Shown here: positions 16,351-45,000 of the stretch, piece after piece
Layout of the letters: the number at the start of each line of letters is the position of its first letter
How positions within the stretch are numbered: the first letter of the stretch is position 1
IMG/VR virus record: IMGVR_UViG_3300022555_000011
Span: 19,381-83,380 of that record
DNA: 64,000 bases
DNA from: a virus
Taxonomy: Duplodnaviria > Heunggongvirae > Uroviricota > Caudoviricetes
Reading direction: 5' to 3' (one strand)
The notes under the pieces: model-generated
What the model was told of the DNA's origin: nothing
Seen by the model: the letters and a program-made list of their open reading frames with translations, nothing else
Database searches by the model: none
Program-made: the position numbers and the translations under genes

Positions 16351-17084
16351 TGACTGACAAAACACTAAAAACACCATTTGTAATTTCTGATCAAACATTA
16401 GATAGAAGAGAAGATATATATGCTTTTTCTGAGTTTGGTAAAATTGTAAATAGATACGTATTAAATGATCAAATATTCTCCGTCGATTTTTGGAAATATT
16501 TGAAAGACAATTATGTTATAAAGCCTGAAAACACTATAGTATATTGTGATCTTCGCTCAGATGTTAAAAATAGAATGGAAAAAAGCTACAAATATATTGT
16601 TAAAGTTGATAAGCCATTTAAAATGATATTTCAATTTTATGATGAAGAAAAAGTTGTAGATGATAAAATATACGAAACTGAAATTGAACAAAAAAATAAA
16701 ATTTCAGAGTTAATGATTCATTTTGACTTTGATGCAATTGATCATGTTGAAAAATTTGTTGAAGATGTTAAGAAAATTATGTATCAACCTGCAGTTAATA
16801 AAACATTTTTCATTATTTCTTCATCTTCAATGGGTTATGAATTAAGAGCAGCAAATATTAAAGAATTTGACGTACAATTAGATTTGAATTATGGTGAGTC
16901 ATTTGTTGAAAAATATGCTGAGATAGTTAATAAATTGAGAAATTTCAAACATGGATTATTTTTATTTCATGGAGAAACTGGTTGTGGGAAATGTGTGGAC
17001 GAATCTACTATTGTTACGTTACGAAATAAAACTACTGGCGAAATAGAAAATATAAATATTTCAGATTTTGAAAAAATAATATGA
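16350..17084 (+). CDS. AAA+ ATPase N-terminal fragment fused to short split-intein N part
   Basis: Walker A stops at GETGCGK, followed by CVDESTIVTL... (intein block A) and a stop. Confidence 0.88.
   Translation: MTDKTLKTPFVISDQTLDRREDIYAFSEFGKIVNRYVLNDQIFSVDFWKYLKDNYVIKPENTIVYCDLRSDVKNRMEKSYKYIVKVDKPFKMIFQFYDEEKVVDDKIYETEIEQKNKISELMIHFDFDAIDHVEKFVEDVKKIMYQPAVNKTFFIISSSSMGYELRAANIKEFDVQLDLNYGESFVEKYAEIVNKLRNFKHGLFLFHGETGCGKCVDESTIVTLRNKTTGEIENINISDFEKII
16992..17081 (+). mobile_element. atypical split intein IntN (30 aa)
   Basis: CVDESTIVTLRNKTTGEIENINISDFEKII. Confidence 0.85.
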
Positions 17085-17099
17085 TGTTTTGCCTGTTCC

Positions 17100-17147
17100 A
17101 CTCATAATATTTTTATATATAGAACAAAAGAATAATTAATTATGAGT
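17100..17147 (+). promoter_or_regulatory. start-codon-sequestering hairpin with TATATATAG in the loop
   Basis: actcataat (17100-17108) pairs with attATGagt (17139-17147). Confidence 0.55.
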
Positions 17148-18122
17148 TTTTATGATATTGAACATTGGATAAAAAAAGGTTTGAGTGAAAATGATGCTAA
17201 GGAAAAAATAAAAGAAATAAAAGAGAAAAATAATAGATTTCGTGTTGAATTTTGGTTAAGGAAAGGATTTACTGAGATTGAATCTAAAGAAAAAATAAGT
17301 GAGATACAAAAAAATAATGCGTCAAAGGTTAATCATAAAACAAAGCCTCAAACAACTAGAATAGATTATTGGATAAGTAAAGGTTATTCTCTTGAAGAAT
17401 CTAAAATAAAATTAAAAGAGAGACAAACTACATTTACATTAGATAAATGTATATTTAAATATGGAGAAATAGAAGGACAAAAAATATTTAGAAATAGGCA
17501 AGAAAAATGGCAAGAGACTTTAAATAAAAATAATGATAAAATTGAACTTAATAAAAAACGTGGTCTATCCAAAGAAAAGTTTATTGAAAAGCATGGTCTA
17601 GAGATGTTTAATAAGAGTGTTGAATTAAAAAAATTTGGAAGTAGTAAAGAAGGTTTGATAGAAAATTATGGTTTAGATTTTTATAATAAGAGAATAAATA
17701 AAACAAAAATTGTATTAAAAAACAGAGGATTTAATAAATATTCAAAAATATCATTAGAATTGTTTTTAGAAATAGAAAAAAATATAGATTTAGATTGTTT
17801 TTACGGTAAAAATGAAAAAATAATACAATTTTATGCTGATGAAAAATATTTTTGCTTCTATGCTGACTTTATGTGTGAAAATAAAATTATAGAATTTTAT
17901 GGTGATTATTTTCATGGTAATCCAGAGGTGTATAATAAAGATAAAATAATTGGTAGTAAATATAAACATTTTTCTGCTGAAGATGCTTGGAAAAAAGATT
18001 CTGATAGAATAAACTTAATTAAAAATCAAGGATATGATATATTAATAATATGGGAAAATGATTATAAAAAAGATAAAGAAAAAATAAAAAATAAATGTGT
18101 AGAATGGATAAAAAATTTATAA
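17142..18122 (+). CDS. free-standing Vsr/PD-(D/E)XK-like endonuclease inside the fractured AAA gene
   Basis: W-x-x-KG-x-x-E-x-E-x-KEK repeats; ADFMCENKIIEFYGDYFH...IWENDY C-terminus. Confidence 0.75.
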   Translation: MSFYDIEHWIKKGLSENDAKEKIKEIKEKNNRFRVEFWLRKGFTEIESKEKISEIQKNNASKVNHKTKPQTTRIDYWISKGYSLEESKIKLKERQTTFTLDKCIFKYGEIEGQKIFRNRQEKWQETLNKNNDKIELNKKRGLSKEKFIEKHGLEMFNKSVELKKFGSSKEGLIENYGLDFYNKRINKTKIVLKNRGFNKYSKISLELFLEIEKNIDLDCFYGKNEKIIQFYADEKYFCFYADFMCENKIIEFYGDYFHGNPEVYNKDKIIGSKYKHFSAEDAWKKDSDRINLIKNQGYDILIIWENDYKKDKEKIKNKCVEWIKNL

Positions 18123-18955
18123 GTTCGAAAAATATTTCAAATTATGAAATATTAACAGAAGATGGATTTAAAGATGTTATAGCATTACATAAAACTATAC
18201 CTTATGATATGTATAATTTAGTTCTTGAAAGTAAAGAGTTAAAATGTGCAGATTTTCATATTGTTTTTTTAGAAACTGGTGAAGAAATTTTTGTTAAAGA
18301 TTTGATTAAAGGTAATAAAATAAAAACTGTTGATGGTGTAGAGGAAGTTTTGGATGTTATAAATTGTGGTTATGAAAAAGAAATGTATGATTTTGAACTT
18401 GGTGGTGATAATTTTAAATATTACACCAATGGAATTTTAAGCCATAATACCACATTAATTAGAAAATTGGTTTCTGAATTAGCTGAAGATAAAACTATTA
18501 TTTATGTTCCATCATATTTTATGGCTGATATTGCTAATCCAGAATTAATTTCATTTATTTCTAAATTTAGAAATTCTGTTCTCTTATTAGAAGATGCTGA
18601 GAGTATTTTAACTGCACCACAAGATGAAAGAACACAAGCTGTCACAAATATATTAAATATTAGTGACGGATTATTGAATGATCATATGGATATGCAAATA
18701 ATTGCAACATTTAATACTGGCAAAAAGAATGTAATTGATGATGCTTTATTACGAAAAGGTAGATTGATGGTTGATTATAAATTTAAGAAACTTACTGCAA
18801 AACAAGCAACTAAACTATCTAAACATATTGGTCAGAATAAAGAATATACTGAGCCTAAATCTCTAGCTGAAATTTATGAGGAAAAAAATAGTGGTAAACA
18901 ATTGGTAGATAATGATGTAAATACACAAAAAATAGGATTTCAATTTACAAAATAA
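18104..18955 (+). CDS. split-intein C part (115 aa) fused to AAA+ ATPase C-terminal fragment
   Basis: Block B KCADFH, block F MYDFEL, block G ILSHN|T; then TTLIRKL, Walker B LLLED, LLRKGRL; ATG 18104 (or 18095). Confidence 0.88.
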   Translation: MDKKFISSKNISNYEILTEDGFKDVIALHKTIPYDMYNLVLESKELKCADFHIVFLETGEEIFVKDLIKGNKIKTVDGVEEVLDVINCGYEKEMYDFELGGDNFKYYTNGILSHNTTLIRKLVSELAEDKTIIYVPSYFMADIANPELISFISKFRNSVLLLEDAESILTAPQDERTQAVTNILNISDGLLNDHMDMQIIATFNTGKKNVIDDALLRKGRLMVDYKFKKLTAKQATKLSKHIGQNKEYTEPKSLAEIYEEKNSGKQLVDNDVNTQKIGFQFTK

Positions 18956-18960
18956 TCTAA

Positions 18961-19005
18961 TTTCTAAAAAAAAGAACTGAAAATTTCAGTTCTTTTTTTT
19001 AGAAA
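18961..19005. terminator. 22-bp near-perfect palindrome, bidirectional terminator
   Basis: tttct(a8)gaactgaaa-a-tttcagttc(t8)agaaa. Confidence 0.8.
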
Positions 19006-19060
19006 AGGTTTTTTTAATTTTGTAGGACTTTTAACTACAAAAGAATTAGACGCATGACTA

Positions 19061-19068
19061 CAAAGATA
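19061..19068 (-). promoter_or_regulatory. Bacteroidota-type -7 box TATCTTTG with no downstream protein gene
   Basis: caaagata on the + strand, facing the 18961-19005 terminator. Confidence 0.35.
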
Positions 19069-19117
19069 TATTAGTTTAATCACACGAAAATAGATATAAT
19101 AATATTATATATCTATT

Positions 19118-19360
19118 ATGAAAGAATTTTTATTTATGTTTCTTATTTTTGTTGCTAACATTAATTGCTTCTCTCAAAGTACAGCATATGCTAATATTTT
19201 TGTGACAATTGTAGAAGCACCAATACAAATTAAAATAACTTCTGATAGTACTGTAGTTAGAAAAGATATTTATATGGCAAGTATGACATCAAAAATGGAT
19301 ACCACATATGTAAATAGAAGGAAAATTGTATTAAATGCTAAATTGATTAATTATAATTAA
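19118..19360 (+). CDS. small secreted/membrane protein
   Basis: Signal-peptide-like N-terminus MKEFLFMFLIFVANINCFSQ. Confidence 0.6.
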   Translation: MKEFLFMFLIFVANINCFSQSTAYANIFVTIVEAPIQIKITSDSTVVRKDIYMASMTSKMDTTYVNRRKIVLNAKLINYN

Positions 19361-19363
19361 TAA

Positions 19364-20341
19364 TTATTTCTTGTTTAATTCCACAATATTTTTAAATTCT
19401 TGTAAAATTCGTGTCTTATTTTCAGATGGTGAATGGTTTATATAATCAATTACCATTTCATTTAATGATAGTGAAGATTCATTTAAGTCTAGAATGTCTT
19501 CTTTATCTTTTAATATTTCATTATCAATATAACTCACATTAGCAATATCATGTTCAGATATTAGCATTTCTATTTTTAATTTGTTGTCAACTAATAGTTT
19601 TTTATTTATATTCAAACTAATGTAATTATTGATAAATGTTTCAACAGGAATATTTAGGTCTGACTCTGTTTCAATGTTTATCTTTTTGAAGTTCGGACTT
19701 AGTTTATTTTGAACAAATTTATCTTTATTCTCATAAACATCTAGAATAATAAATCCTTTTTTATCATCACCTTCAGTGTTGTATGGACCAGCTAAATTTT
19801 TGATATTTGCAGTTACACCGTTTTTATCATAGAATCCATTATAACATTTTTTGTACATTTTTAGCTTGTTTACTATAATGTCTCTTTTTGGTGAGTTTAC
19901 ATAATCAAAGTTAAAGAAACAATAGTCAGATTCAAATTTATCAAGATCCTCAATTTGTGTATTTCTTGGAAGTGCAACAAAACTTTCATCCAATAAAATT
20001 TCTATTCTTTTAGGTTCTTTTATAATTTCAATATTGTCTATATTTTTAAGGATATTTAATGATAGAGTGTCATTTTCTCCTTCTATAATATATACTGGAA
20101 GTATTTTTGATATCTTTTCAAATAAGTCTTGAATGAATTTTAAGACTGTTAAATCAATTGTTTTTGTTTTGCATAGTAGATTACCTAAATGAATTAATAT
20201 ATCATTTGGTTGAGCGTTATTAGTCAAATAAGGCACAAATTCGTTGTAGAAATAGTAGTCCATGTTTTTCAACCATTCTTTTGAAGAAAGATTTTTTGAT
20301 AGGTTTAAGTTTGTATTGCTTATGATGAATATTTTTGACAT
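19364..20341 (-). CDS. degenerate SbcD/Mre11/gp47-like protein
   Basis: Overall gp47-like layout, but IISNTN, HLGNL and EGEND replace DxH, GD and GNHD. Confidence 0.7.
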   Translation of the reverse strand: MSKIFIISNTNLNLSKNLSSKEWLKNMDYYFYNEFVPYLTNNAQPNDILIHLGNLLCKTKTIDLTVLKFIQDLFEKISKILPVYIIEGENDTLSLNILKNIDNIEIIKEPKRIEILLDESFVALPRNTQIEDLDKFESDYCFFNFDYVNSPKRDIIVNKLKMYKKCYNGFYDKNGVTANIKNLAGPYNTEGDDKKGFIILDVYENKDKFVQNKLSPNFKKINIETESDLNIPVETFINNYISLNINKKLLVDNKLKIEMLISEHDIANVSYIDNEILKDKEDILDLNESSLSLNEMVIDYINHSPSENKTRILQEFKNIVELNKK

Positions 20342-20607
20342 ATTTCGTTTAATTTTTTTAATTTTTCCACTCTTTCTTGTTTTTCCGTAATAAAATAATT
20401 TTTATATAAAGAGCCATTTGCGATATTTGTATTTCCATTATTATTTATTTCATCTTTAGATAAATAACATCTAATATTCCAATCATCATATATGTAAAAA
20501 TCATATGGTATATTAGACATTCGTACAAGATTATACCATTTACCAACAGTTAAACTTAATTGACCTCTTTTTACACATAAAACTTTATCAAATTTCTGAA
20601 TGTTCAT
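20320..20607 (-). CDS. hypothetical protein with C-terminal RVEKLKKL motif
   Basis: 95-aa ORF overlapping both neighbours. Confidence 0.6.
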   Translation of the reverse strand: MNIQKFDKVLCVKRGQLSLTVGKWYNLVRMSNIPYDFYIYDDWNIRCYLSKDEINNNGNTNIANGSLYKNYFITEKQERVEKLKKLNEICQKYSS

Positions 20608-20743
20608 TGATTTTTTTCAATTTTTCTCTTCTCTCTTTTTTTTGTATTTCAATACATTGTTTTTTGTATATGTCAAGTATTTCTTTTTGAGATAAGCAAT
20701 GATCATAATGAATAATTTCTGTTATGCCTTCAACATAATTCAT
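20588..20743 (-). CDS. 51-aa protein not in the ORF track (ends ERREKLKKINEHSEI)
   Basis: Manual translation MNYVEGITEII...; ATGA overlap with the upstream RHH-like gene. Confidence 0.6.
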   Translation of the reverse strand: MNYVEGITEIIHYDHCLSQKEILDIYKKQCIEIQKKERREKLKKINEHSEI

Positions 20744-20895
20744 TTTTTATCTTTTTCTTTCCTTATTAAGTGTTCAATATATTTTGATTTTGAAACACCT
20801 TTTTCTTCTAATAATTTATCTAAAATTTCATCTAATTCTTTATTGATAGATAAAGAAATTGCCTTTTTATGGTTCTCAATTTTAGGTCTTCCCAT
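20740..20895 (-). CDS. ribbon-helix-helix (CopG-like) protein, 51 aa, not in the ORF track
   Basis: MGRPKIENHKKAISLSINKELDEILDKLLEEKGVSKSKYIEHLIRKE. Confidence 0.7.
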   Translation of the reverse strand: MGRPKIENHKKAISLSINKELDEILDKLLEEKGVSKSKYIEHLIRKEKDKK

Positions 20896-20991
20896 AGTTT
20901 TTTATTTTTATATAAAATATTTTAATATTTGTTTAAAAATAGAAAAATACGACTTTATTTTATTTATATATACTATAAAAAAGAAATAAAA

Positions 20992-21153
20992 ATGCCAAAA
21001 ATAAAAAAGACAAAGAAGAAAGTTGCCATTACTGTTGATCCTGATATTTATGAATTTTTAACAAATTTTGAAAATAAATCAAAGTATGTTGAGTATTTAA
21101 TATATAAAGATATTAAGGAATGTGGGTTATTAAAAAAAGAAATTATACTATGA
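20992..21153 (+). CDS. ribbon-helix-helix-like protein, 53 aa
   Basis: MPKIKKTKKKVAITVDPDIYEFL...NKSKYVEYLI; TATATA upstream; ATGA overlap with the GIY-YIG gene. Confidence 0.65.
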   Translation: MPKIKKTKKKVAITVDPDIYEFLTNFENKSKYVEYLIYKDIKECGLLKKEIIL

Positions 21154-21884
21154 TTCATTATGTTTATGCTTATTTAGATACAAGAAAGCCTGGTAAATAT
21201 ATTTATGATGATTTAGAATTTGAATATGAGCCATTCTATATTGGTCAAGGTAAAAAATATAGATGTTCAACTGGATTAAAAAATGGCTCTAAATACAAAG
21301 TTCATAAAGTTAATAAAATAATTAAGGATGGATTTTATCCTAAGATAATGAAATTGTATGAAAATCTAAATTTTGAAAATGCTATCAAGTTAGAGATTGA
21401 AATTATTTCAAAGATTGGTAGATGTGATTTACAAAATGGTCCTTTAGTAAATTTAACAAATGGCGGAGAAGGAAAGTTAAATTTTAAAATTACAGAAGAA
21501 ACAAGATTAAAACAGAGATTGGCTAAACTCGGAAAATCACCATCCAATAAAGGTGTATCACCATCAAATGAAACTAAAGAAAAAATATCAAATTCGTTAA
21601 AAGGTGATAAGAATTTTAATTATGGTAAGCATTTTAGTGACGATCATAAAAAAAGACTTTCAGAATCAAATAAAACTCCACAAATTAAACCAGTCTATCA
21701 ATATAATTTAGAAGATTATTTTATAAGAGAATATGATTCAATATTGTTAGCGTCAATAGATAATAAGATAAATAAATCCAGTATAGGTAAATGTTGTAGA
21801 GGTGTGGTTAATAAAGCTGGTGATTATAAATGGAAATTTAAAAATCCAAATGGTAATCATAGAAAAAATAATAATGAATTATGA
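21150..21884 (+). CDS. GIY-YIG homing endonuclease with NUMOD3/NUMOD1-type tail
   Basis: YVYAY...FYIGQG, NLTNGGEG, SxETKxKISxS repeats, VYQYNLE...CCRG...WKF. Confidence 0.8.
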   Translation: MIHYVYAYLDTRKPGKYIYDDLEFEYEPFYIGQGKKYRCSTGLKNGSKYKVHKVNKIIKDGFYPKIMKLYENLNFENAIKLEIEIISKIGRCDLQNGPLVNLTNGGEGKLNFKITEETRLKQRLAKLGKSPSNKGVSPSNETKEKISNSLKGDKNFNYGKHFSDDHKKRLSESNKTPQIKPVYQYNLEDYFIREYDSILLASIDNKINKSSIGKCCRGVVNKAGDYKWKFKNPNGNHRKNNNEL

Positions 21885-22339
21885 TAAATTACTTTGCGTA
21901 TGGCTCTAACATTTCTTCATTTAGAATGTTAAACGAAAGAAATGTAAATTTTATAAGTAGAAAATTTGCAATATTAGAAAATTATAAATTACTATTTAAT
22001 AAGGTTTCTAAAAAAAATTGTTATTTGGGATTTGCAAATGTTGTAGAATCTAATGGAGATGTTGTTGAAGGTGCAATATATGAATTAAGTGACTCTGATA
22101 TTAATATAATTGATAAATTTGAGGGCGCAAATTCTAAACCAAGTCATTATTGTAGAAAAAATGTAGATGTTATTTGTGATGGTAAAATAATTAATGCTAT
22201 TGTTTATGTTGCTAATCCTGATATGATTAGAGAAAATATTAAGCCTGATAAAAGTTATTTAAATTATTTATTGGAAGGTAAAGATATTTTTAGTGATAAA
22301 TATTATAATGACTTAAAATCAACAAAAACATTGGATTGA
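21881..22339 (+). CDS. gamma-glutamylcyclotransferase (AIG2-like)
   Basis: YFAYGSN, VEGAIYEL, IDKFEG, Y..P...YL motifs. Confidence 0.8.
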   Translation: MINYFAYGSNISSFRMLNERNVNFISRKFAILENYKLLFNKVSKKNCYLGFANVVESNGDVVEGAIYELSDSDINIIDKFEGANSKPSHYCRKNVDVICDGKIINAIVYVANPDMIRENIKPDKSYLNYLLEGKDIFSDKYYNDLKSTKTLD

Positions 22340-22401
22340 TTAATAAAATTTTTTATTTTTAATTTTTATATATACTTTTACAACAAATGTTTAAATAAAG
22401 T

Positions 22402-23112
22402 ATGAAAATAACAGCGATAGGGGATATACATGGTAGAGAAACTTGGAAGGATATAGTTACAGACAATCCAAGTTCTCATTTTGTTTTTTTAGGTGATTAT
22501 CTTGATGCCTATGATATTGAAGAAATTTCTGAAGAAGAGAGTGTAGAAAATTTTTATCAATTATTAGATTTTAAAAAAGGAAATTCAAATAAGGTTACTT
22601 TGTTAATTGGTAATCATGATTTTCAATATTTATACTATCCTTTTGGTGCAACAAATGCAATGTCTAAAAAATATTTACCAGAAATTAGAGAAATATTTAG
22701 AGATAATAAAAATCTTTTTCAATTTGCTTATCAAAGAAAAAATTATTTATTTCTTCACGGTGGTTTGACCAATTCTTGGGTTAAAGAGCATCTTGATTAT
22801 TTAACTAAAATTGGACTAAAACCTGACAAAAGTAATATTGGTGAAATAATAGATAAGGCTGGTCAAGAACTAATTGGAAGATATGCTTTGAGTGAAGTTT
22901 CTTATTATAGAAATGGACCTAAATTATATGGTGGACCTCTTTGGTGTGATCATAGAGAGCTTGTTGCTGATAATTTAGATAATTATCATCAAATAACGGG
23001 TCATAATAAATTTTATGAGATAGAAACTTGGAAAGAAGAGGATGATAGTTCTTCTATCACTTTTTGTGATTGTTTATTTAATAAACTTGATAGTTATACA
23101 ATAAATATTTAA
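22402..23112 (+). CDS. calcineurin-like metallophosphoesterase
   Basis: GDIHG, GDYLD, GNHD, HGG and GHN motifs. Confidence 0.88.
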   Translation: MKITAIGDIHGRETWKDIVTDNPSSHFVFLGDYLDAYDIEEISEEESVENFYQLLDFKKGNSNKVTLLIGNHDFQYLYYPFGATNAMSKKYLPEIREIFRDNKNLFQFAYQRKNYLFLHGGLTNSWVKEHLDYLTKIGLKPDKSNIGEIIDKAGQELIGRYALSEVSYYRNGPKLYGGPLWCDHRELVADNLDNYHQITGHNKFYEIETWKEEDDSSSITFCDCLFNKLDSYTINI

Positions 23113-23121
23113 AAATAGACA

Positions 23122-23171
23122 AAAATGACTTTTTGTTTTTAATATATAGTATAAAAACAAAAAGTCATTTT
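23122..23171 (+). promoter_or_regulatory. 20-bp perfect hairpin ending at the ATG, with ATATATAG in the loop
   Basis: aaaatgactttttgttttta / taaaaacaaaaagtcatttt; loop atatatagta. Confidence 0.75.
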
Positions 23172-24035: not shown

Positions 24036-24322
24036 ATATATCCTTCATTTTCTGCTTCTTTTTTTGCGGCTTCTTCTCTTTCTTCTATTGATTTTCTATG
24101 AGAAAGTGCATCTCTTTTTAATTGCTTTGCAGTCTGTATAATTATTTCTAAATTTTGTCTTAATCTAATTGATGCAACTTTATAATCTTTTTTATAAAGT
24201 TTATAATAATCTACTCTACAATGATTTAGTCTTTCAATAATATCCTCTATTGGATTGTTACTGTCATCATATTCGTCTTCTGTTGTAGACGATATTTTTC
24301 CACCTCTTTCATGATTTATCAT
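24032..24322 (-). CDS. possible histone H1-like (Hc1-family) protein
   Basis: DYYKLYKKDYKVASIRLRQNLEII...AKQLKRD resembles the Hc1 KGNKAAGTRARK helix. Confidence 0.45.
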   Translation of the reverse strand: MINHERGGKISSTTEDEYDDSNNPIEDIIERLNHCRVDYYKLYKKDYKVASIRLRQNLEIIIQTAKQLKRDALSHRKSIEEREEAAKKEAENEGYI

Positions 24323-25268: not shown

Positions 25269-25316
25269 AGTTTATAATGATTTTTTATGTTATATTAAAA
25301 GTTTATAAAAAAGTTT

Positions 25317-34431: not shown

Positions 34432-34455
34432 AAATAGAATGAAAATAGGGGATAA

Positions 34456-34653: not shown

Positions 34654-34684
34654 ACAAAAATAAAACAAAAATAAAACAAAAATT

Positions 34685-34948: not shown

Positions 34949-35028
34949 AATTTTTATTAGATGTAATTATATAAATACACTTGTGTGGATTTTTTATTTT
35001 AAAAAAAAACTTTTAATAATAATTTAAT

Positions 35029-35043
35029 TATAATAACTTAGAA
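35029..35043 (+). promoter_or_regulatory. TATAATAACTTAGAA motif (copy 2), upstream of recA-N
   Basis: Identical to 33318-33332. Confidence 0.45.
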
Positions 35044-35072
35044 CAAATCTAAATAAAAATAATTAAACTAAT

Positions 35073-36041
35073 ATGGCAAAGACAACAAAACCATCACAAA
35101 AAAAATCAAATGATTTTGATTTCTCAAAAATATCTACACTTATAGAGAATATTTCAAAGAAAGATATAATTTCAATTGAAGATTTTGAGAAAGAAAAAAC
35201 ATTTATTTCAACAGGCATTCATATCGTAGATGCACTTTTATCAAAAAGTATTTTAAAAGGTGGAATACCTAATAACAAAATCACAATTATCGCTGGTCCA
35301 AAACAAACTGGTAAATCATTTATCTCTTTAAATATAGCAAGAAATGCACAAAAGATGGGGTATAATATTGTATGGATTGATACAGAATATTCTATTGAAA
35401 AAGCTGATTTTGATATGTATGGTATTGATACTTCAGACGCTAACAAATTTATGTTGATTAGAACTAATATCGTTGAGAAGATAAAAATGTTTATGATGTC
35501 GTTTTTAGATGCTTTGCAAAAATTAAAAGACACAGGAGTTGATGTGTCAAAAACTATATTCTTCTTAGATTCCATTGGTATGTTATCCAGTGAAAAGGAA
35601 AAAGAAGATACACTCAAATTGAATGTCAAACAAGATATGACACGTGCAAAACAAATCAAATCTCTTGTTAGACTTATTACAAATGATTTAGGATATTTGA
35701 ATATTCCATTAGTAGCAACAAACCACGTTTATTTATGTTTAACTGCTGGACATAAAGTAATAAAGGCTGATGGTAATTCAGAATTAATAGAGAATTTAAT
35801 GATAGGTGATTCTATACAAACATTAGAAGGAAATAAAACTATTGTAAAAACTGTTGAATATCCTAAAAGTCCAATAATTCAAATAACATTGGAAACTGGT
35901 GAGAAAATTAAATGCACTCCACAACATAGATTTTTAGTAAAACCTGATTGGGTTAGCGACGAAAATAATGATTGTTGGAAAAAGGCGGAAGATTTAACTG
36001 ATAAAGATATAATTTTAGCGGTTGATGAAACTATTAAATAA
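35073..36041 (+). CDS. recA: UvsX/RecA recombinase N-terminal fragment + split-intein N part (101 aa, 35736-36038)
   Basis: Walker A GPKQTGKS, WIDTE, FFLDSIG, VATNHVYL then CLTAGHKV...CTPQH (blocks A and B). Confidence 0.9.
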   Translation: MAKTTKPSQKKSNDFDFSKISTLIENISKKDIISIEDFEKEKTFISTGIHIVDALLSKSILKGGIPNNKITIIAGPKQTGKSFISLNIARNAQKMGYNIVWIDTEYSIEKADFDMYGIDTSDANKFMLIRTNIVEKIKMFMMSFLDALQKLKDTGVDVSKTIFFLDSIGMLSSEKEKEDTLKLNVKQDMTRAKQIKSLVRLITNDLGYLNIPLVATNHVYLCLTAGHKVIKADGNSELIENLMIGDSIQTLEGNKTIVKTVEYPKSPIIQITLETGEKIKCTPQHRFLVKPDWVSDENNDCWKKAEDLTDKDIILAVDETIK

Positions 36042-36099
36042 ACTTTATTAGTGGAAATAAACGAGTTTTTTATTTTTATATATAGAATAAAAAAAGATT

Positions 36100-37329
36100 A
36101 TGGAATTAATAGAAAAAATTAAAAATAGTAAAAGTATGTCTGGCATCATTAGAATGATTAATGGTGATGATAAATTAAATGATATTGTTATAGATAGAAC
36201 AAAGTATTTAAATGATGCTTCTATACATGAAAGGTTATTTAATATAAAAAATGATTTTTTTGATAATACTGTTTGTTCCATATGTAATGTAAGTTTTTTA
36301 GAATGGAATGTTAAATATAATAAATATAAAAATACTTGTTCTCATAAAGAATGTAAAACAAAATTTTTGATGATAAATAAAGATCCAGAGTCAGAAAAAT
36401 TAAGAAGAGAAAAAATAAGCGAAACACAAAAAAATAAAACTGAAGAAGAAAAACAAATAATTTTAGACAAGATTAAAAAAACAAATATTAAAAAATTTGG
36501 TAAAGATTCTTATGCAAAAACACAAAAATTTAAAAATGATATGATTGATAAATATGGATATATTAGTGCATTTGAATTGAAAGAAACCCATGATAAGTCA
36601 AAATTAACTTTACTTAAAAAATATAATTGTGATCACAATTCTAAGATAGATGAAGTGAAAAATAATAAAAAAATTACATATTTAAATAATTATGGTGTTG
36701 ATAACCCCACAAAATCTATAGTTGTAAAAGATAAAATTATAAAAACAAATAATGAAAAGTATGGTGGCAACTCACCTATGAATAATGATGAAGTGAAAGA
36801 AAAAGCAAGAGAAACATATCAATCAAATTATATTGATAATGAATTAAAAATGAATGAGTTGGTTTCCAGAAGAGAAGATACGATGTTTAAAAAGTATGGT
36901 GTTAATTATTGGATACAAGATAGTAAAAACTTAGATAAATTAGTTAAAAAAACAACTTATAAAAAATATCTTATACATGATAAAGAATATTTTTTGCAAG
37001 GATATGAAGATTGTGTTCTATTTGATATTTTATTAAAAAAGTATGATATTAATGATATTTGTATTTTTAATGATGATATAGAAAAATACACAGGTAAAAT
37101 ATATTATAGAGTTGAAAATAAAAAACACAAATATTATCCAGATTTTTATATAATAAGTGAGAATAAAATATATGAAGTTAAATCTGAATATACGTATAAT
37201 TCAGATATTATTATAAATACTCTAAAAAAAGATGCTTGCATTAATAACGGAATAGATTTTGAGTTTATTATATTGTCTAAAAAAGAATATAATAAATGGA
37301 AAAATAATAAAAATAATAAAAATATATGA
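36100..37329 (+). CDS. free-standing PD-(D/E)XK-type endonuclease inside fractured recA
   Basis: KYGVDNP-type repeats; C-terminal YYPDFYI...IYEVKS. Confidence 0.75.
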   Translation: MELIEKIKNSKSMSGIIRMINGDDKLNDIVIDRTKYLNDASIHERLFNIKNDFFDNTVCSICNVSFLEWNVKYNKYKNTCSHKECKTKFLMINKDPESEKLRREKISETQKNKTEEEKQIILDKIKKTNIKKFGKDSYAKTQKFKNDMIDKYGYISAFELKETHDKSKLTLLKKYNCDHNSKIDEVKNNKKITYLNNYGVDNPTKSIVVKDKIIKTNNEKYGGNSPMNNDEVKEKARETYQSNYIDNELKMNELVSRREDTMFKKYGVNYWIQDSKNLDKLVKKTTYKKYLIHDKEYFLQGYEDCVLFDILLKKYDINDICIFNDDIEKYTGKIYYRVENKKHKYYPDFYIISENKIYEVKSEYTYNSDIIINTLKKDACINNGIDFEFIILSKKEYNKWKNNKNNKNI

Positions 37330-38036
37330 AAAATTTTAAAGAAATTAGAGTATCTAAAGTAGAATATTTAGATGAATTAGAAACTACATATGATATTCAA
37401 GTAGAAGGTGTGCATCATTATATATTAGAAGGTGGTATAGTTTCGCATAATACTCAAGACATGTTTCCACAAACTATTATGTCTGGTGGTGAAGGTTTAT
37501 ATTATGCTGCTAGTGTTATTTTATTATTGAGTGACGCAAAATTAAAAACTGGTGAAGAAGATGAAATGGATCTTGGTAGATCAGGTTCAATTATCACCGC
37601 TCGTTCAGCAAAAAATAGATTGGCAAAACCAAAGAAAGTTAAATTTGAAATTGATCATAGTAAAGGTATTAACCCTTATAAGGGATTAGATTTATTCTGC
37701 ACTTTTGAAAATTTCCCTAAAATTGGTGTTGCTCAGGTTAAGAAAGAAGTTGACAAAGAGACTGGAGAAATTACATACAAACCTTCTAATCGTTGGTATG
37801 TTAGACATTTAGATAAAACATTATCAGCAAACCAAATTTTTAATAGAAAAGTTTTTAATCCAGAAGTATTAAAGGCTATGGAACCAATAATTTATGATTA
37901 TTTCAAATATCCATCATATGATGAGTGTCTTAGGGAATTGGAAGATATTGACGAGAGATTAAATGAAATTGAAGATAAGGATATGTTATCTTCAGAAGAA
38001 TTTAATCTTGAAGATGACGCAAATCTCTTCAATTAA
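37326..38036 (+). CDS. recA: split-intein C part (42 aa, 37326-37451) + UvsX/RecA C-terminal fragment
   Basis: TYDIQVEGVHHYILEGGIVSHN|TQDMFPQTIMSGGEGLYYAAS...KNR. Confidence 0.9.
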   Translation: MKNFKEIRVSKVEYLDELETTYDIQVEGVHHYILEGGIVSHNTQDMFPQTIMSGGEGLYYAASVILLLSDAKLKTGEEDEMDLGRSGSIITARSAKNRLAKPKKVKFEIDHSKGINPYKGLDLFCTFENFPKIGVAQVKKEVDKETGEITYKPSNRWYVRHLDKTLSANQIFNRKVFNPEVLKAMEPIIYDYFKYPSYDECLRELEDIDERLNEIEDKDMLSSEEFNLEDDANLFN

Positions 38037-38078
38037 GTTTGAAATTCGAACTTTTCCAAAAAATAATATAATACTCAT

Positions 38079-39425
38079 ATGTCGGAAGCGATGAATACGA
38101 ATATGGAAAAGCATTTCTTTATCTATATTTTAGATACACCAGATCAATTTTCCAAAGTAGAACCTTACTTTTTTAATAATTCAGATATACAGTTTGTTTA
38201 TACTGTAATCAGAGAAGAATATTTAAGAAGTGAGAGTCATATTGTACCAAGTACACAACAAATAGTAGCAATGGTCAAATTAGCTGATCAAGAAAATAAA
38301 ATAAGTAGTGCAGTTTTAAAAATACTACTTCAATCAGATAACGGTGATATAAGTCAAGAATGGTTGTTACCAAGATTTAAAGCTTGGAAAATTGAGAAAC
38401 AATTAAATGGTGATATGTTAAAAACCATTGATATGGTTCGAAATATTAAAGGCGAAATAAACTATGATACCGTGGTTGAAGTTGCTCAAAAAATAAAAGG
38501 AATTTTTGGTAATGTAATGATGGTTGATGATGATGACAGTGATTTAGGAGATGACTTTGACGATCCAGAATCACATAAACAGTTAATCAGTAAAAACAGC
38601 ATTCACACAGGCTGGCCTTGTATAGATTCAATATTAGGTGGTGGCTGGAGTAAATGCACATTAAATGTTATTATGGGTGAAACTAACGTTGGTAAATCAA
38701 TGTGGTTACACAATATTGCTACAAATGCAGCAAATGCTGGAGCTAATGTGTTAGTTATTACATTAGAAATGGCAACAAGAAAAGTAATGAAAAGATTGGG
38801 TTCTATGAGACTTAAAATTAATTCAGATGAATATGATGAAAAGTCAAAAGATGCAGTCTTTATGAAACAAAGATTAAATAATTTAAAATCTCAGGGATTT
38901 GGTGGCGGAGGATTGTTCGATTCTCAACCAGGCAAGATTTTTGTTAAAAAATACAATACAAGTGATTGTACTGTAACTGATATAGATAACTATATCAAAA
39001 AATTTGAAGAAGTTAAAAGGCTTAAAGTAGGAATGGTAATTGTGGATTATATAAATATTATGTCCATTGAAAAAGGCTTTGATATCACTAATATGCTTTA
39101 CTTAAAGGGAAAACACTTAGCAGAAGGCTTAAGAAGAATTGGAGATAAATATGAATGTGCAGTTGTTACTGCAACACAAACTGATAAAGCAGTTTGGGGA
39201 GCATCTGATATTAAATTGGGTGATATTCCTGAAAGTAAGGCTATTGCAGATACAGCAGACTCGGTTTGGGGTATTATTAGAAATCCAGAAATGAAACGTA
39301 ATAATATCTATAGATTAAAAATATTAAAATTAAGAGATGGTGAACACCATGAAGAACAAGTTAGATTTGATTTTAATACTAAATTTTTAACTATGGAAAA
39401 CGATCAATTGGTTGGTGCTAAATAA
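38079..39425 (+). CDS. dnaB: replicative DNA helicase (DnaB/T4 gp41-like)
   Basis: GETNVGKS, ITLEM, IVDYI, TATQ, LKLRDG motifs. Confidence 0.9.
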   Translation: MSEAMNTNMEKHFFIYILDTPDQFSKVEPYFFNNSDIQFVYTVIREEYLRSESHIVPSTQQIVAMVKLADQENKISSAVLKILLQSDNGDISQEWLLPRFKAWKIEKQLNGDMLKTIDMVRNIKGEINYDTVVEVAQKIKGIFGNVMMVDDDDSDLGDDFDDPESHKQLISKNSIHTGWPCIDSILGGGWSKCTLNVIMGETNVGKSMWLHNIATNAANAGANVLVITLEMATRKVMKRLGSMRLKINSDEYDEKSKDAVFMKQRLNNLKSQGFGGGGLFDSQPGKIFVKKYNTSDCTVTDIDNYIKKFEEVKRLKVGMVIVDYINIMSIEKGFDITNMLYLKGKHLAEGLRRIGDKYECAVVTATQTDKAVWGASDIKLGDIPESKAIADTADSVWGIIRNPEMKRNNIYRLKILKLRDGEHHEEQVRFDFNTKFLTMENDQLVGAK

Positions 39426-39446
39426 TATCTAAAAATAATATTATGT

Positions 39447-40127
39447 ATGACACAAAGGAAGAATTTAGATTTAGATGATGATTTAGAAAATAATTTAGAT
39501 GAGGAATTAGGTGCAGACTTTATTGATGATGTTATTATAGATGAAGAATTTGGTAACGGAGATATTGTAGAATCTATTGAGTCTGATGAAGATATAGATG
39601 ATGATTCTGAAGAAGATGTGATGTTTAAGTTTAATACAAATAATCATAAACTTGAAGGAAAACACTCATTAACAAGAGATACAATATTTAAAGGTAAACT
39701 TGATGACAATTCTGAACAATCCGATTATTTTAGTGGTAATCAGGAAGAATCTTATAGTTATGATGGATTACCAATAGAAGTTGGCTCTAATTATGAATTT
39801 GAAAGTAAATATCATGAAGAATATGTTGGTAGACTTAATTTATCAAGAGATGTTTATGATTTATTAAACGAAAAAACAGAGTTGGATTTTTCTTCAAATA
39901 GAAGAAAACCCAATAAACAAGCATTTAACGACTATTATAAGATGTTGTTGGATAATATTGGCAAAGAATATACTAAATCAGAAATCTTTGTCGAATTATC
40001 TTATTATTTTACAGATAACATATTCAATATGTTTAAGTTATTAGATAAAGAATATGCAACACAAATTATAGTAGAGCTAAAACAAAGTGGATATTTGAGT
40101 CATCTCAGTAATATCAACTTCATATAA
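39447..40127 (+). CDS. acidic hypothetical protein
   Basis: 226-aa D/E-rich ORF between helicase and RNR. Confidence 0.65.
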   Translation: MTQRKNLDLDDDLENNLDEELGADFIDDVIIDEEFGNGDIVESIESDEDIDDDSEEDVMFKFNTNNHKLEGKHSLTRDTIFKGKLDDNSEQSDYFSGNQEESYSYDGLPIEVGSNYEFESKYHEEYVGRLNLSRDVYDLLNEKTELDFSSNRRKPNKQAFNDYYKMLLDNIGKEYTKSEIFVELSYYFTDNIFNMFKLLDKEYATQIIVELKQSGYLSHLSNINFI

Positions 40128-40144
40128 AAAATAAAAGAAATAAC

Positions 40145-41008
40145 ATGGCTTTTTTTAAGAGAGACGAAGCATACTACGCATCATTAAAATATTTTAAGGG
40201 AGATACTTTAGCATCTGATGTATGGGTTAATAAATATGCGTTAAAAGACACAAAAAGTGGCGAGACTGTTTATTACGAACGTACGCCAGATGATATGCAT
40301 TGGAGACTTGCAAGAGAAATACATAGGATAGAAGCTAAATACCAAAATCCTTTATCAGAACAATTTTTATTTGATTTGATGAAAGATTTTAAGTATATAA
40401 TTCCACAAGGCTCTCCAATGTCAGGTATTGGAAATAATAGACAAGTTGTATCATTATCAAATTGTTTTGTTATAGGTAATCCTTCTGATTCATATGGTTC
40501 AATTATGCAAGTTGATGAAGAACAAATTCAACTTATGAAACGTAGAGGTGGTGTTGGACATGACCTTTCTCATATTAGACCTGCTGGAATGCCAGTTAAA
40601 AATTCAGCATTAACTTCAACAGGACTTGTACCTTTTATGAATAGATATTCTAATTCTACAAATGAAGTGGCTCAAGGTGGTAGGCGAGGCGCATTAATGT
40701 TAACTTGTTTTTCGCCTGATACATTTGTTCTTACAGATTATGGATGGGATCAAATAAAGAATGTTATAAATAAAATAAAATCTGGAATTGAAATTAAATC
40801 TTGGACACATGATGGGTTTAAGAATATTTTAGATATTCAAGAATTTAAAAATAGAGATGTTTATGAAATAGAATGTGAAAATGATAAGATCATAATTGTT
40901 ACTCCAGATCATGAATTTGTTGTAAGAAATATGAATTCAGGTGAGGAATATTTGAAGGCTATAATTGACGTAGATGTATTAATAGAAGAATTAATATTTT
41001 ATTTTTAA
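40145..41008 (+). CDS. nrdJ: class II ribonucleotide reductase N-terminal fragment + split-intein N part (100 aa, 40706-41005)
   Basis: SLSNCF, GGVGHDLS.IRP, RRGALMLT then CFSPDTFV...TPDH. Confidence 0.9.
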   Translation: MAFFKRDEAYYASLKYFKGDTLASDVWVNKYALKDTKSGETVYYERTPDDMHWRLAREIHRIEAKYQNPLSEQFLFDLMKDFKYIIPQGSPMSGIGNNRQVVSLSNCFVIGNPSDSYGSIMQVDEEQIQLMKRRGGVGHDLSHIRPAGMPVKNSALTSTGLVPFMNRYSNSTNEVAQGGRRGALMLTCFSPDTFVLTDYGWDQIKNVINKIKSGIEIKSWTHDGFKNILDIQEFKNRDVYEIECENDKIIIVTPDHEFVVRNMNSGEEYLKAIIDVDVLIEELIFYF

Positions 41009-41078
41009 TTTTATTTTCATTTTTCCAGTTTTTTTATTTTATATATACAAATAAAACATCCAGATGAAAATAAAATTA
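41006..41078 (+). promoter_or_regulatory. 15-bp hairpin sequestering the endonuclease ATG, TATATATAC between the arms
   Basis: taattttattttcat (41006-41020) pairs with ATGaaaataaaatta (41064-41078). Confidence 0.7.
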
Positions 41079-42053
41079 TTAAAAATTGAGGAGGACAGAA
41101 GAAGAATATTGTATAAAATAGATCAAGAAGAGTACATCATTAATGGTAAGATATTTAAAGTAAAAAAAAGCACTGCTAATCTTAGTAGTTATTTAAATTC
41201 TATTGATAGTTCATTAATTAAAATTTTAAATTTATCAGTAGATTGTAAATGTAAAAATTGTTTAGAGTATATTACTAGAAATAGATTTGAAAGAAATGTT
41301 TTTATTGCATATAAATTTTGCAATGAGTGTGATAAAAGAAATGTTTTGAATAAATATAATATTGTTAAGTGTATATGTTGTAATAAAGAAATTTTATATA
41401 AAGATATTAAATATTCTACTTGTGGAAATAAAAAATGTTTAGAAGAATATAGAAATATTATAAATAATAAAATAAAAGAAACACATTGGACTTTAAATGA
41501 TCACAAAAATGATATAACGATTAAAAAATCTATAAAAAGAAAAGAAAATGATATTAAATTTTGTAGAAAATATGTGGCTTGGAATAAAGATAAAACTGGA
41601 ATATATTCTAAAGAGACAATTGAAAAATTAAGAAATGCTGCCATTAATCAAATGAAAAATGGTAAAATTAAAAAAACAGGAATTGAGACAATTTTTGAAG
41701 AATTATTAAAATCTAATAATATTGATTATACATACTCGTTTATATATGAAAATAGGCAATTTGATTTTATTATAAAAGATTATAATATTGTTGTTGAAAT
41801 TCAGGGGGATTACTGGCATTCTAATCCTAAATTTTGGGATGTTTATGATAATGATAAAACAAAAAAGAAATTGTATGAGACTCAGATAATGAAAATAAAA
41901 GATGATGTAATTAAAAAGAATATTATAGAAAGATCAAAATATGATTTTGTTTCATTTTGGGAATATGATATTCATAATAATATTTCAGAAGTTGAAAAAA
42001 CTTTATTTGAATTAATTAATAAAAATAAAATTAAAAATGGAAAAAACTTATAG
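41064..42053 (+). CDS. free-standing Vsr/DUF559-like endonuclease inside fractured nrdJ
   Basis: Zn-ribbon N-terminus; IETIFEELL...FDFII...EIQGDYWH...FWEYDI. Confidence 0.78.
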   Translation: MKIKLLKIEEDRRRILYKIDQEEYIINGKIFKVKKSTANLSSYLNSIDSSLIKILNLSVDCKCKNCLEYITRNRFERNVFIAYKFCNECDKRNVLNKYNIVKCICCNKEILYKDIKYSTCGNKKCLEEYRNIINNKIKETHWTLNDHKNDITIKKSIKRKENDIKFCRKYVAWNKDKTGIYSKETIEKLRNAAINQMKNGKIKKTGIETIFEELLKSNNIDYTYSFIYENRQFDFIIKDYNIVVEIQGDYWHSNPKFWDVYDNDKTKKKLYETQIMKIKDDVIKKNIIERSKYDFVSFWEYDIHNNISEVEKTLFELINKNKIKNGKNL

Positions 42054-45000
42054 TAAAATACGTAAAATAACAAAAAAAGGTAAAAGTGATGTATATGATT
42101 TTACGGTGGAAGACACACATAGAATATTGGCAAATAATTTTTATACTTCAAATTGCTCCGTAAAACATCCAGATTCTGAAAGTTTTATTGATGCAAAATT
42201 AGAAGATGGTAAAGTAACTGGTGCAAATATTTCAGTTAAAATTGCAGATGACTTTATGGAAGCCGCATTAAATGCTAAAATGTACACACAATTATTTCCA
42301 ATAGATTCAAAAAATCCTATTCATACTAAAGAAATTGATGCTCAAAAATTGTGGAAGAAAATTATTCATAATGCCTGGAAATCTGCGGAGCCAGGTGTTT
42401 TATTTTGGGATACAGTAATGAGAGAATCTGTGCCAGATTGTTATCAAGATTATGGCTTTACAACAATTTCAACAAATCCTTGCATTATTGGTGATTCTTT
42501 AATTGCTGTTGCTGATGGTAGAAATGCAGTTTCTATAAGACAATTAACAGAAGAAGGTAAAGATATTCCAGTATATAGTACAAATAGTGAAGGTAAAATT
42601 GAAATAAAATGGGGTAGAAATCCTAGATTGACTGGAAAAAATAAAGAAGTATGGAAATTAACTTTAGATGATGATTCTGTTTTTGTCGCAACCCCAGATC
42701 ATAGAGTTTATTTGAATAATAATACATATAAAGAATTAAAAGATTTGTTACCAGGTGAATCAATATCATCTTTTTATTCTTTTAATTCTAATAAGGGATA
42801 TAGACAAATTGCACAAACTGGTGATAAAATGATCGGAGGTAGATATAGAAATAGAAGACAGTATAGACTTATTCATGAGTTTCATAAAGGTAAAGACATT
42901 GATTATAAATTGTTTAATATACATCATAAAGATTTCGATAATCAAAATGATATGATAGATAATTTAGAATTGATGACGAGAGATGATCATAAATTTTTAC
43001 ATTCTGGAAGAATTAAAGGTAAAAATAATCCATATTTTAGAATGACTGATGAATGGAAAGCTAATTTTGCTTCACATCCAGGAGAAAAGAATTCTAAATA
43101 TATTAATGTTTCTAATGATGAAATGATAATTCATGGTAGAGAATTATTTAAACAGGAAGGAAAATTTACAGCACGAGGATGGATTAAGTATTCAAAAGAA
43201 CATAATTTGCCACAATCATTATGGAACGAATTTAGATTTAAGACATTTGCAGATTTTAAAAACCAAGTAGTAAATAATCATAAAGTTGTGAGTGTTGAAT
43301 TTTTTGGATATGATGATGTATATAATATTACAGTTGATGATAATCACAATTATAATGTTATTACAAAAACTGAGGATGATAGATATATAACATCAGGTGG
43401 AATTTGCGTAAAAAATTGTGGAGAAATAACTCTTTGTCCTTATGATTCTTGTAGATTATTGGCTATAAACCTTTATAGTTTTGTAGATGAACCTTTTACA
43501 AAAAATGCAAAATTTAATTGGGATAAATTCAAGGAATATGTTGTTTATGCTGAAAGGATTATGGATGATATTATTGATCTTGAGATAGAAAAAATTAATA
43601 TGATCTTGGATAAAATTGCATCAGATCCAGAAAATGAAGAAACTAAAAGAGTTGAAAGAGAAACTTGGATTAAGATTATGAATATGACTTTAAATGGTCG
43701 TAGAACTGGTTTGGGTGTAACTGCTGAAGGTGATATGTTAGCTGCTCTTGGCTTAAGATATGGTACACCAGATGCAACAGATTTTTCAACAGAAGTTCAT
43801 AAAGTATTGGCGATAAATGCTTATAAATCATCTGCAATTATGGCAAAAGAACGTGGCTCATTCCCTATTTATGATTATGAAAGAGAAGTTAGTAATCCTT
43901 TTGTTCAAAGATTAAAAGATGCTGATCCAGAATTAGATATGATGTTAAAACAATATGGTAGAAGAAATATTGCACTTTTGACTATTGCACCAACAGGAAC
44001 AGTTTCACTAATGACACAAACAACTTCAGGTATCGAACCTGCATACTTGGTTTCTTATAGAAGAAGAAGAAAGATTAATCCTACTGATAAAGGTGGTAGA
44101 GTTGATTTTATAGATGCAGAAGGTGTAAAATGGGAAGAATATAATGTCTTTCATCATAAGTTTGAAGTTTGGTTAGAGGTTAACGGTTATAATATTGATG
44201 AAGTAAAAGCAATGAAAGATTCTGAATTAAAATTAATTATTGAAAAATCTCCATACTATAAAGCAACTTCTAATGATGTTGACTGGGTTGAAAAGGTTAG
44301 AATGCAAGGTATGATTCAAAAATATGTTGACCATTCTATTTCAGTAACAGTTAACTTGCCTAATAATGTAACTGAAGAAATTGTTTCTAAAGTATATGAA
44401 ATGGGCTGGAAGTCTGGATGTAAAGGTATGACAGTTTATCGTGATGGTTCTCGTCAAGGAGTTATTATGTCAAATGAAGGAACAACTCAAAATGTTGTTA
44501 AAGAAGTACAAGAGAACAACGCAAAACCAAGACCAAAAAGACTTGAATGTGAAGTTGTTAGATTTACTAATAATAAAGAAAAATGGGTTGGTGTTCTTGG
44601 ATTGATGGTTGATGAAAAAGGTCAAAAATATCCTTATGAGATATTCACTGGATTACTTGATGAATTTTATATTCCTCCTAGTATTGAAAAAGGTGAAATT
44701 ATTAAGCATAAAGAAGATGGTGAAAAAAGTAGATATGATTTTGTTTACAAGGACAAAGATGGTTATAATGTTACAATGGAAGGCTTAAATAGAGCTTTTA
44801 ACAGAGAATTTTGGAACACAAGTAAACTATTGTCAGCATTTTTAAGACATAGAATACACCTTCCTAGTGTGATTAATCTTATTGATAGTTTACAAATGAA
44901 TTTAGATAATGAAGCAGCTTTTGGTACTTGGAAATCTGGTGTGAAAAGAATTATTAAGAAATATATAAATTCTATCGTTGTTGGCGAATCTTGTCCAGAA

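Follow-up and report, generated by a model that had tools for sequence, protein, structure and literature searches.

The stretch of DNA analysed here, referred to as the window, comprises 64,000 nucleotides (positions 19,381 to 83,380) of the viral record IMGVR_UViG_3300022555_000011 and carries genes for an AAA ATPase, a UvsX/RecA-like recombinase and the ribonucleotide reductase (RNR) NrdJ, each of which is divided by a different split intein. The source record, from IMG/VR, consists of one linear contig of 147,380 bp with ~25% G+C. Given that its helicase shows 59% identity to that of the uncultured phage LR756501 (735 kb) and ~31% to those of Lak megaphages, and that CheckV assigns the 147-kb contig a completeness of 21%, the contig is a fragment of a huge phage. 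All three divided genes lie on the same (+) strand within a span of ~25 kb in the replication module. The open reading frame (ORF) listing and translation revealed the same triplet at each locus: an upstream ORF in which the N-extein is followed by the N-terminal intein fragment (IntN), a free-standing endonuclease ORF, and a downstream ORF in which the C-terminal intein fragment (IntC) precedes the C-extein. The two extein-bearing ORFs occupy 16350-17084 and 18095-18955 for the AAA ATPase, 35073-36041 and 37326-38036 for UvsX/RecA, and 40145-41008 and 42037-45084 for NrdJ. Their components are listed below, with related metagenome sequences denoted by L or G numbers and lengths in amino acids (aa).

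16350-16991, + strand: AAA ATPase N-extein, 214 aa, ending in the Walker A sequence GETGCGK; contiguous with the C-extein in L030-L038
16992-17084, + strand: AAA IntN, 30 aa plus stop, starting with Cys1, an atypically short N-fragment; 73-80% identity in L028 and L029
17142-18122, + strand: free-standing endonuclease gene between the AAA halves, 326 aa; weak Pfam match to REase_MTES_1575, phrog_22677
18095-18448, + strand: AAA IntC, 118 aa from the first ATG or 115 aa from the ATG at 18104, holding block B and ending in SHN, +1 Thr; TIGR01443
18449-18955, + strand: AAA ATPase C-extein, 168 aa; Pfam AAA match
35073-35735, + strand: UvsX/RecA-like recombinase N-extein, 221 aa; Pfam RecA/KaiC, the intact homologue in L005 matching UvsX and RecA structures
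35736-36041, + strand: RecA IntN, 101 aa plus stop, following NHVYL, with Cys1 and block B CTPQH; TIGR01445 and PF14890, alleles in L001-L004
36100-37329, + strand: free-standing homing endonuclease gene at recA, 409 aa, DUF7487; Pfam 2.6e-34, PHROG "homing endonuclease"
37326-37451, + strand: RecA IntC, 42 aa, ending in SHN, +1 Thr; TIGR01443 1.9e-7, its start overlapping the endonuclease stop (ATGA)
37452-38036, + strand: UvsX/RecA C-extein, 194 aa; phrog_97, UvsX-like
40145-40705, + strand: NrdJ N-extein, 187 aa; Pfam Ribonuc_red
40706-41008, + strand: NrdJ IntN, 100 aa plus stop, following GALMLT, with Cys1 and block B VTPDH; TIGR01445 3.5e-11, alleles in L039-L045
41064-42053, + strand: free-standing Vsr-like endonuclease gene, 329 aa; weak Pfam Vsr match below the cut-off
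42037-42153, + strand: NrdJ IntC, 39 aa, with a basic head, ending in TSN without a penultimate His, +1 Cys; TIGR01443
42154-42480, + strand: NrdJ middle extein, 109 aa
42481-43416, + strand: contiguous cis-splicing NrdJ intein with an HNH endonuclease domain, 312 aa, inserted at NP/CGE; PF14890 and HNH_3
43417-45084, + strand: NrdJ C-extein, 555 aa

Intein profiles from Pfam and NCBIfam matched every half except the 30-aa AAA IntN, which is too short to score. TIGR01443, which describes the intein C-terminus, matched the three split IntC ends and the NrdJ cis intein, and TIGR01445, which describes the N-terminus, matched the RecA and NrdJ IntN halves and the cis intein; no further intein termini were found by profile search across the whole 147-kb record. 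LR756501, the closest published genome, contains one or two intein C-termini only, and the intein density seen here is therefore not a general trait of that genome. An earlier note on this DNA had claimed that one genome holds three different split inteins, and the ORFs, translations and profiles confirm its coordinates, lengths and +1 residues. Its placement of the RecA (101 + 42 aa) and NrdJ (100 + 39 aa) breaks at the canonical split position is likewise correct; the AAA intein is split elsewhere.

To establish how the divided genes compare with intact ones, IMG/VR was scanned with the host proteins. Dozens of related contigs were recovered, most of them with uninterrupted genes. The exteins abut exactly at the predicted junction in 9 related contigs for the AAA gene, more than 20 for recA and more than 15 for nrdJ, the intact homologues reading GxGK/T, NHVYL/TQDMF and GALMLT/CSVKHPDS, respectively (slash, junction). 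The window's RecA junction, NHVYL/TQDMF, is identical to that of the uninterrupted alleles. Given that intact AAA homologues read GxGK/T at the junction, the threonine of the Walker A GKT supplies the +1 residue of the AAA intein. Every allele retains Cys1, block B, the terminal Asn and the +1 nucleophile. The ratio of nonsynonymous to synonymous substitution rates (dN/dS), calculated over short segments by the NG86 method, was 0.04-0.29 in pairwise comparisons of the intein halves, comparable to the exteins, and 0.22-0.44, somewhat more relaxed, for the endonucleases. The intein halves are under purifying selection. A pseudogene or an assembly artefact was considered and rejected, since the same arrangements recur under purifying selection in independent metagenome contigs. 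From these sequence features we infer that the halves of each host protein would be joined by protein trans-splicing.

It might be argued that at least one pair no longer splices, its halves either assembling non-covalently, as do those of Aeromonas phage Aeh1 NrdA split by mobE, or belonging to a dead gene. For a fragmented phage RNR such rescue is on record (PMC3045599), the NrdJ IntC ends in TSN without a penultimate His, and AAA block B has Ala at the usual Thr position. Nevertheless, both halves of all three inteins are under strong purifying selection, Cys1, the terminal Asn and the +1 Cys or Thr are invariant, and the NrdJ ending FYTSN/C is retained in seven of seven alleles, the exteins of which span 40-70% identity. 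In addition, the AAA gene is split within the Walker A loop, where non-covalent rescue would be implausible. Loss of splicing is thus considered very improbable.

The RecA intein provided the clearest comparison between divided and undivided forms. Its site aligns to E. coli RecA at the start of a segment that we take, from established knowledge of RecA, to be loop L2. Among relatives this site is found empty, occupied by a contiguous intein, split with an endonuclease, and split with an endonuclease remnant. L001 has the complete endonuclease, L002 only a ~50-aa remnant of it, and L004 none. In the last of these, positions 2305-2730 encode a natural contiguous RecA mini-intein of 142 aa, uninterrupted by a stop codon or an endonuclease. 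It is an allele of the window's split RecA intein (82-90% identity) and can be aligned over its full length to IntN followed by IntC, the split falling between its residues 100 and 101. HINT-fold modelling was applied to the RecA intein only, via this contiguous allele, and yielded a HINT fold with a pLDDT of 91.2 in which the break falls in a turn between two strands. Comparison with solved structures by Foldseek gave TM scores of 0.74-0.82 to the NpuDnaB, gp41-1 and Mtu RecA inteins, which together with NpuDnaE were the closest. As judged by these alignments and the predicted fold, L004 and the window represent a natural pair of contiguous and split alleles at the canonical endonuclease-insertion position. 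For the RecA intein and endonuclease, dS between the window and L001 was 0.29-0.39, as against 0.95 for the flanking exteins (small samples). Given that the dS of the unit is well below that of its flanking exteins, the data would fit recent horizontal transfer of the intein and endonuclease together.

By contrast with this canonical split, the AAA intein combines an IntN of 30 aa with an IntC of 115 or 118 aa that holds block B. The criteria used here for an atypical intein were an IntN of ~15-37 aa, an IntC of ~100-120 aa in which block B lies, and resemblance in sequence to known members. The AAA intein has the lengths and block B placement of this class and resembles 6dsl and 6vgv: sequence matches of its IntC in the PDB were CatC (6dsl, 2.5e-6), VidaL (6vgv, 5.5e-6) and gp41-1 (6qaz), and its IntN, which starts with Cys1, can be aligned to the atypical IntN of gp41 and TerL inteins. 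On sequence, the AAA intein is a member of the known atypical class that includes CatC, VidaL and the TerL inteins.

At the NrdJ locus, the endonuclease is present at the same position in L039-L042 with 55-61% identity. In the distant alleles L043 (3350-4790), L044 and L045, the split intein lies two residues further along the extein (LMLTIH/CNHPE versus LMLT/CSVKHPD), and this offset could represent either a shifted insertion point or local divergence of the extein. Downstream, alleles of the cis-splicing HNH intein are found in L016 and L017 at 78-79% identity. The nrdJ thiyl-radical site contains an intein of 37-40% identity in L001, L039 and L040, and an insert of ~1.1 kb with no similarity to the window's HNH intein in L009 (11549-12666). 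Several intein lineages thus appear to compete for this site.

The three endonucleases are less readily classified. The NrdJ-locus enzyme scored 20.7 bits against Pfam Vsr (cut-off 27) and the AAA-locus enzyme 20.8 bits against REase_MTES_1575 (cut-off 38.2), both sub-threshold. A C-terminal motif, GDY(W/F)H..NP ... WE.D, is common to the endonucleases by eye only, and no usable PDB sequence match was found for any of the three. Because the Pfam matches are sub-threshold and the PDB searches were empty, membership of the AAA and NrdJ enzymes in the Vsr-like/EDxHD (I-Bth0305I) family is putative. At each locus the start of the IntC-extein ORF lies within the 3' end of the endonuclease ORF, the overlaps being 28 nt (18095-18122), 4 nt (37326-37329) and 17 nt (42037-42053), which suggests that the C-half and the endonuclease are co-transcribed or translationally coupled. 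A common T-rich motif, TTTTATATATA followed by G/C and AA, is found ~10-20 nt upstream of each endonuclease ATG (in 17105-17141, 36070-36099 and 41035-41063); it is promoter-like and lies within a weak predicted hairpin. Elsewhere in the window, segments at 45609-45797, 50860-51060 and 60787-61182 share 35-53% identity with the endonuclease of the RecA locus in its N-terminal repeat region and are probably parts of further free-standing homing-endonuclease genes.

The distribution of the elements among relatives is given below. HE denotes a homing endonuclease gene, nrdJ a the site of the split intein and nrdJ b that of the cis intein; a site not named for a contig lies outside the sequence covered.

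Window: AAA split with HE; recA split with HE; gp41 empty; nrdJ a split with HE; nrdJ b cis HNH intein; TerL not seen
3300000553_000081 (L002 and L029): AAA split with HE; recA split with ~50-aa HE remnant; gp41 split with HE; nrdJ a and b empty
3300002933_000045 (L001): recA split with HE; gp41 split with HE; nrdJ a empty; nrdJ b a different cis intein
3300009502_001249 (L004): recA contiguous 142-aa mini-intein; gp41 split with HE; nrdJ a empty
G001 (L010): AAA and recA empty; gp41 split with HE; nrdJ a and b empty
G003 (L017): AAA and recA empty; gp41 split, no HE; nrdJ a empty; nrdJ b cis intein
L020-L022: AAA and recA empty; gp41 split, HE frameshifted; nrdJ a and b empty
L019, L023, L025 and L026: AAA, recA, gp41, nrdJ a and nrdJ b all empty
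G004 (L039 and L053): recA empty; gp41 split with HE; nrdJ a split with HE; nrdJ b cis intein; TerL split with HE
L041 and L042: recA split; gp41 empty; nrdJ a split with HE; nrdJ b empty

Thus, each intein element assorts independently among close relatives.

The presence of three split inteins in one phage raises the matter of their mutual specificity. Given that the genes lie on one contig, one strand and in one module, and that recA, nrdJ and the AAA gene each lack a second copy in the 147-kb contig, the three predicted pairs must coexist without ruinous cross-splicing. To this extent the proposal in the earlier note of a naturally selected orthogonal set is sound; its element of selection is not sustained. 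The reconstituted inteins share 27% (AAA/RecA), 19% (AAA/NrdJ) and 26% (RecA/NrdJ) identity, and they differ in split topology, AAA being of the short-N atypical type and RecA and NrdJ canonical. Assuming homology to be detrimental to orthogonality, Pinto et al. 2020 (PMC7090010) picked inteins that are phylogenetically distant. Fifteen of their 16 distant split inteins proved orthogonal without any selection, the residual cross-talk arose mainly with short-peptide atypical splits, and the fractured-gene inteins gp41-1, gp41-8, NrdJ-1 and IMPDH-1 shared one pot with SspGyrB. Given the 19-27% identity and these published results, mutual non-interference of the window's three inteins is, by analogy, the default expectation.

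The contrary view is that the interfaces have been shaped within the genome against RecA-RNR and similar chimeras, for example by opposite charges, to give a co-adapted set. The pairs are co-resident and probably co-expressed in one module, and split RecA and split NrdJ inteins recur jointly in a second lineage (L041 and L042). The charge pattern to which the earlier note drew attention is also present in the window: the last 25 aa of the NrdJ IntN carry a net charge of -5 and the first 20 aa of its IntC +5, and the RecA IntC is acidic (-4 over its whole length). This pattern is not kept. In L041, which likewise has a split RecA and a split NrdJ intein, the IntC is basic in each (RecA +3, NrdJ +8 over the whole fragment), and the NrdJ allele has the same basic IntC head in L039 and L040, which lack the RecA intein. 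Moreover, it is general in fractured-gene inteins for the halves to bear opposite charges locally, with either polarity (Dassa et al. 2009, PMC2677866). Charge was therefore rejected as a discriminator, its polarity differing between the window and L041 alleles. Furthermore, 19-27% identity by itself predicts orthogonality, and the elements assort independently among relatives. No sign of co-adaptation was seen, although with few co-resident genomes this is a weak test. A co-adapted, selected set is accordingly regarded as unlikely.

The reading that we favor, with reasonable though not full confidence, is of three independent mobile units whose non-interference stems from old, distant lineages and is an inherited default that was not selected within this genome. 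Here, the replication region of a huge phage would have received three fractured-gene units, each consisting of a split intein with a homing endonuclease gene between its halves. Each host protein would be translated as two polypeptides, cut inside Walker A (AAA), at the start of loop L2 (UvsX/RecA) or in the GGRRGALM...HPD motif (NrdJ). Cognate IntN and IntC would then form one HINT domain and ligate the exteins by trans-splicing, and the endonuclease would carry the whole unit into empty alleles during co-infection. The distance between the lineages and their differing split types would prevent interference. Three points weigh against this. First, the RecA IntN tail is acidic (-3 over its last 25 aa) and, by charge sign, would attract and not repel the basic NrdJ IntC head, such that this encounter would be electrostatically permitted and discrimination left to putative shape complementarity. 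Second, default orthogonality is an extrapolation from other inteins. Third, the contig represents ~21% of the estimated genome, and further inteins or backup copies may lie elsewhere.

A different situation is found among relatives of the AAA intein. The window's helicase gene is intact:

38079-39425, + strand: gp41/DnaB-type helicase, uninterrupted in the window, with an empty site GETNVGK/S at codons 206/207 (~38694-38699)

In many relatives (L001, L002, L004, L010, L017, L018, L020, L039 and L040) gp41 is fractured at GETNVGK/S by an atypical intein with an IntN of 33-35 aa and an IntC of 116-122 aa, 41-47% identical to the AAA intein. The gp41-locus endonucleases, which are putatively Vsr-like, share ~34% identity over their full length with that of the AAA locus; the gene is lost in L017, present as a remnant fused to IntC in L018 and frameshifted in L020-L022. 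In L053 (1-3369), which belongs with L039 to the G004 record, an atypical split intein accompanied by an endonuclease interrupts TerL after RQMGK; the IntC of this intein is ~35% identical to the AAA IntC. The L053 TerL IntN (53 aa) and IntC (150 aa) bear extra hydrophobic, helix-like extensions at the split ends, which might add pairing specificity or might be AT-rich read-through. The DNA targets of the AAA and gp41 sites in the window share GGNGAAACT...GGNAAA. Given that the AAA, gp41 and TerL inteins all sit between the Walker A Lys and Ser/Thr, the comparison suggests that one intein-endonuclease unit has moved between P-loop sites.

Such paralogues co-reside. IMGVR_UViG_3300000553_000081 carries split AAA, gp41 and RecA inteins, and IMGVR_UViG_3300028601_000028 carries split gp41, TerL and NrdJ inteins. 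The AAA and gp41 inteins are 45% identical in the co-resident contig and 41-47% elsewhere, a small sample in which to look for character displacement. The non-cognate combination of AAA IntN (L029) with gp41 IntC (L002) received a complex-prediction score of 0.84, the best control scoring 0.02; of 80 solved complexes, 58 passed the mark applied, as did 2 of 110 mismatched pairs. Separate runs of this model shared at least 91% of contacts, with a partner pLDDT of at least 85, and placed Cys1 against block B and the strands of blocks F and G. The predictor passes close cousins of true partners, and solved atypical inteins exist. Thus, cross-association of AAA and gp41 halves is structurally plausible, the model speaking for likeness and not for binding or splicing.

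This result bears on the possibility that some cross-association or cross-splicing occurs in the window and is tolerated, for example by kinetic dominance of the cognate pairs. The two docking partners come from the same contig, and the residual cross-talk of Pinto et al. 2020 (PMC7090010) likewise involved mainly short-peptide atypical splits. However, the docking pair is absent from the window, where gp41 is uninterrupted, the predictor's acceptance of close cousins reduces its verdict to likeness, and divergence is far greater among the window's own three inteins. Tolerated cross-talk therefore seems quite unlikely there. On the model, it is the paralogues, with N-fragments of 30-35 aa, and not the window's distant three that would need evolved discrimination. 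It is tentatively proposed, as a doubtful idea, that within this huge-phage clade the unit spread across the Walker A sites of P-loop ATPases and that its paralogues possibly present natural, selected orthogonality between close short-tag inteins.

The fractured-gene arrangement itself was described in 2009 by Dassa, London, Stoddard, Schueler-Furman and Pietrokovski (PMC2677866) for gp41-1, gp41-8, NrdJ-1, NrdA-2, IMPDH-1 and others. The layout at the window loci is identical, with an IntN-ended upstream ORF, an IntC-led downstream ORF, an endonuclease between them and exteins that together make up one homologue; the endonuclease of the 2009 set is a free-standing GIY-YIG or Vsr-like protein. 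Both sets are of phage origin with hosts in DNA metabolism, and forms lacking the endonuclease occur in both (gp41-7 there; L017 and L002 among the relatives here). By contrast, the eight host types of 2009 include neither UvsX/RecA nor this AAA ATPase, and their NrdJ site adjoins the thiyl-radical Cys, ~110 residues downstream of the window's split site. Furthermore, the short metagenome reads of the 2009 study could not reveal co-residence, whereas three units are found here on one contig.

That inteins occupy P-loop sites is well established (Novikova et al. 2016). With VidaL (6vgv) and consensus Cat (6dsl), the AAA intein shares a short IntN, an IntC holding block B and insertion in a P-loop; its identity to TerL inteins from cultured phages is 40-46%. 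The same likeness extends to AceL-TerL and GOS-TerL, the atypical naturally split inteins reportedly described by Thiel in 2014 and by Bachmann and Mootz in 2015. The AAA intein differs from these TerL-hosted inteins in its host, an AAA ATPase (the gp41 helicase in relatives), in its +1 Thr, and in that an endonuclease gene is still present. The libraries of Pinto et al. 2020 likewise place several split inteins side by side without cross-talk, on the strength of low homology; people put those sets together from various organisms, whereas the window's is a natural, predicted set in one genome. In Aeh1 the nrdA-a/mobE/nrdA-b arrangement likewise has a phage RNR gene cut by a free-standing homing-endonuclease gene; it reportedly has no intein and its halves assemble non-covalently (PMC3045599), whereas the window's break is flanked by intact intein halves.

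A literature search turned up no account of split inteins hosted by UvsX/RecA or by this AAA ATPase, or located at this NrdJ site. A search that was in one part poorly targeted found no paper on several split inteins residing together in nature. New here are the contiguous allele of the RecA split intein that occurs naturally in L004, the AAA-unit paralogue fracturing gp41 and the related TerL unit at the same Walker A position, the joint presence of such paralogues on single contigs and the predicted docking of a non-cognate pair of them.

In summary, to argue orthogonality from the co-residence of three split inteins is logically sound and, given the published orthogonality data, unsurprising. 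Split inteins that function together are sought-after tools in protein engineering, and this clade supplies several candidate pairs that, to judge from their conservation, are evidently functional: two with Thr at +1, one with an N-tag of 30 aa and one without a penultimate His. The stages seen among relatives, from an empty site through a contiguous mini-intein to a split intein with an endonuclease, a remnant or none, provide a natural before-and-after pair for the origin of split inteins. The co-resident paralogous Walker A inteins, in turn, offer a system in which to ask how much divergence the specificity of trans-splicing needs.

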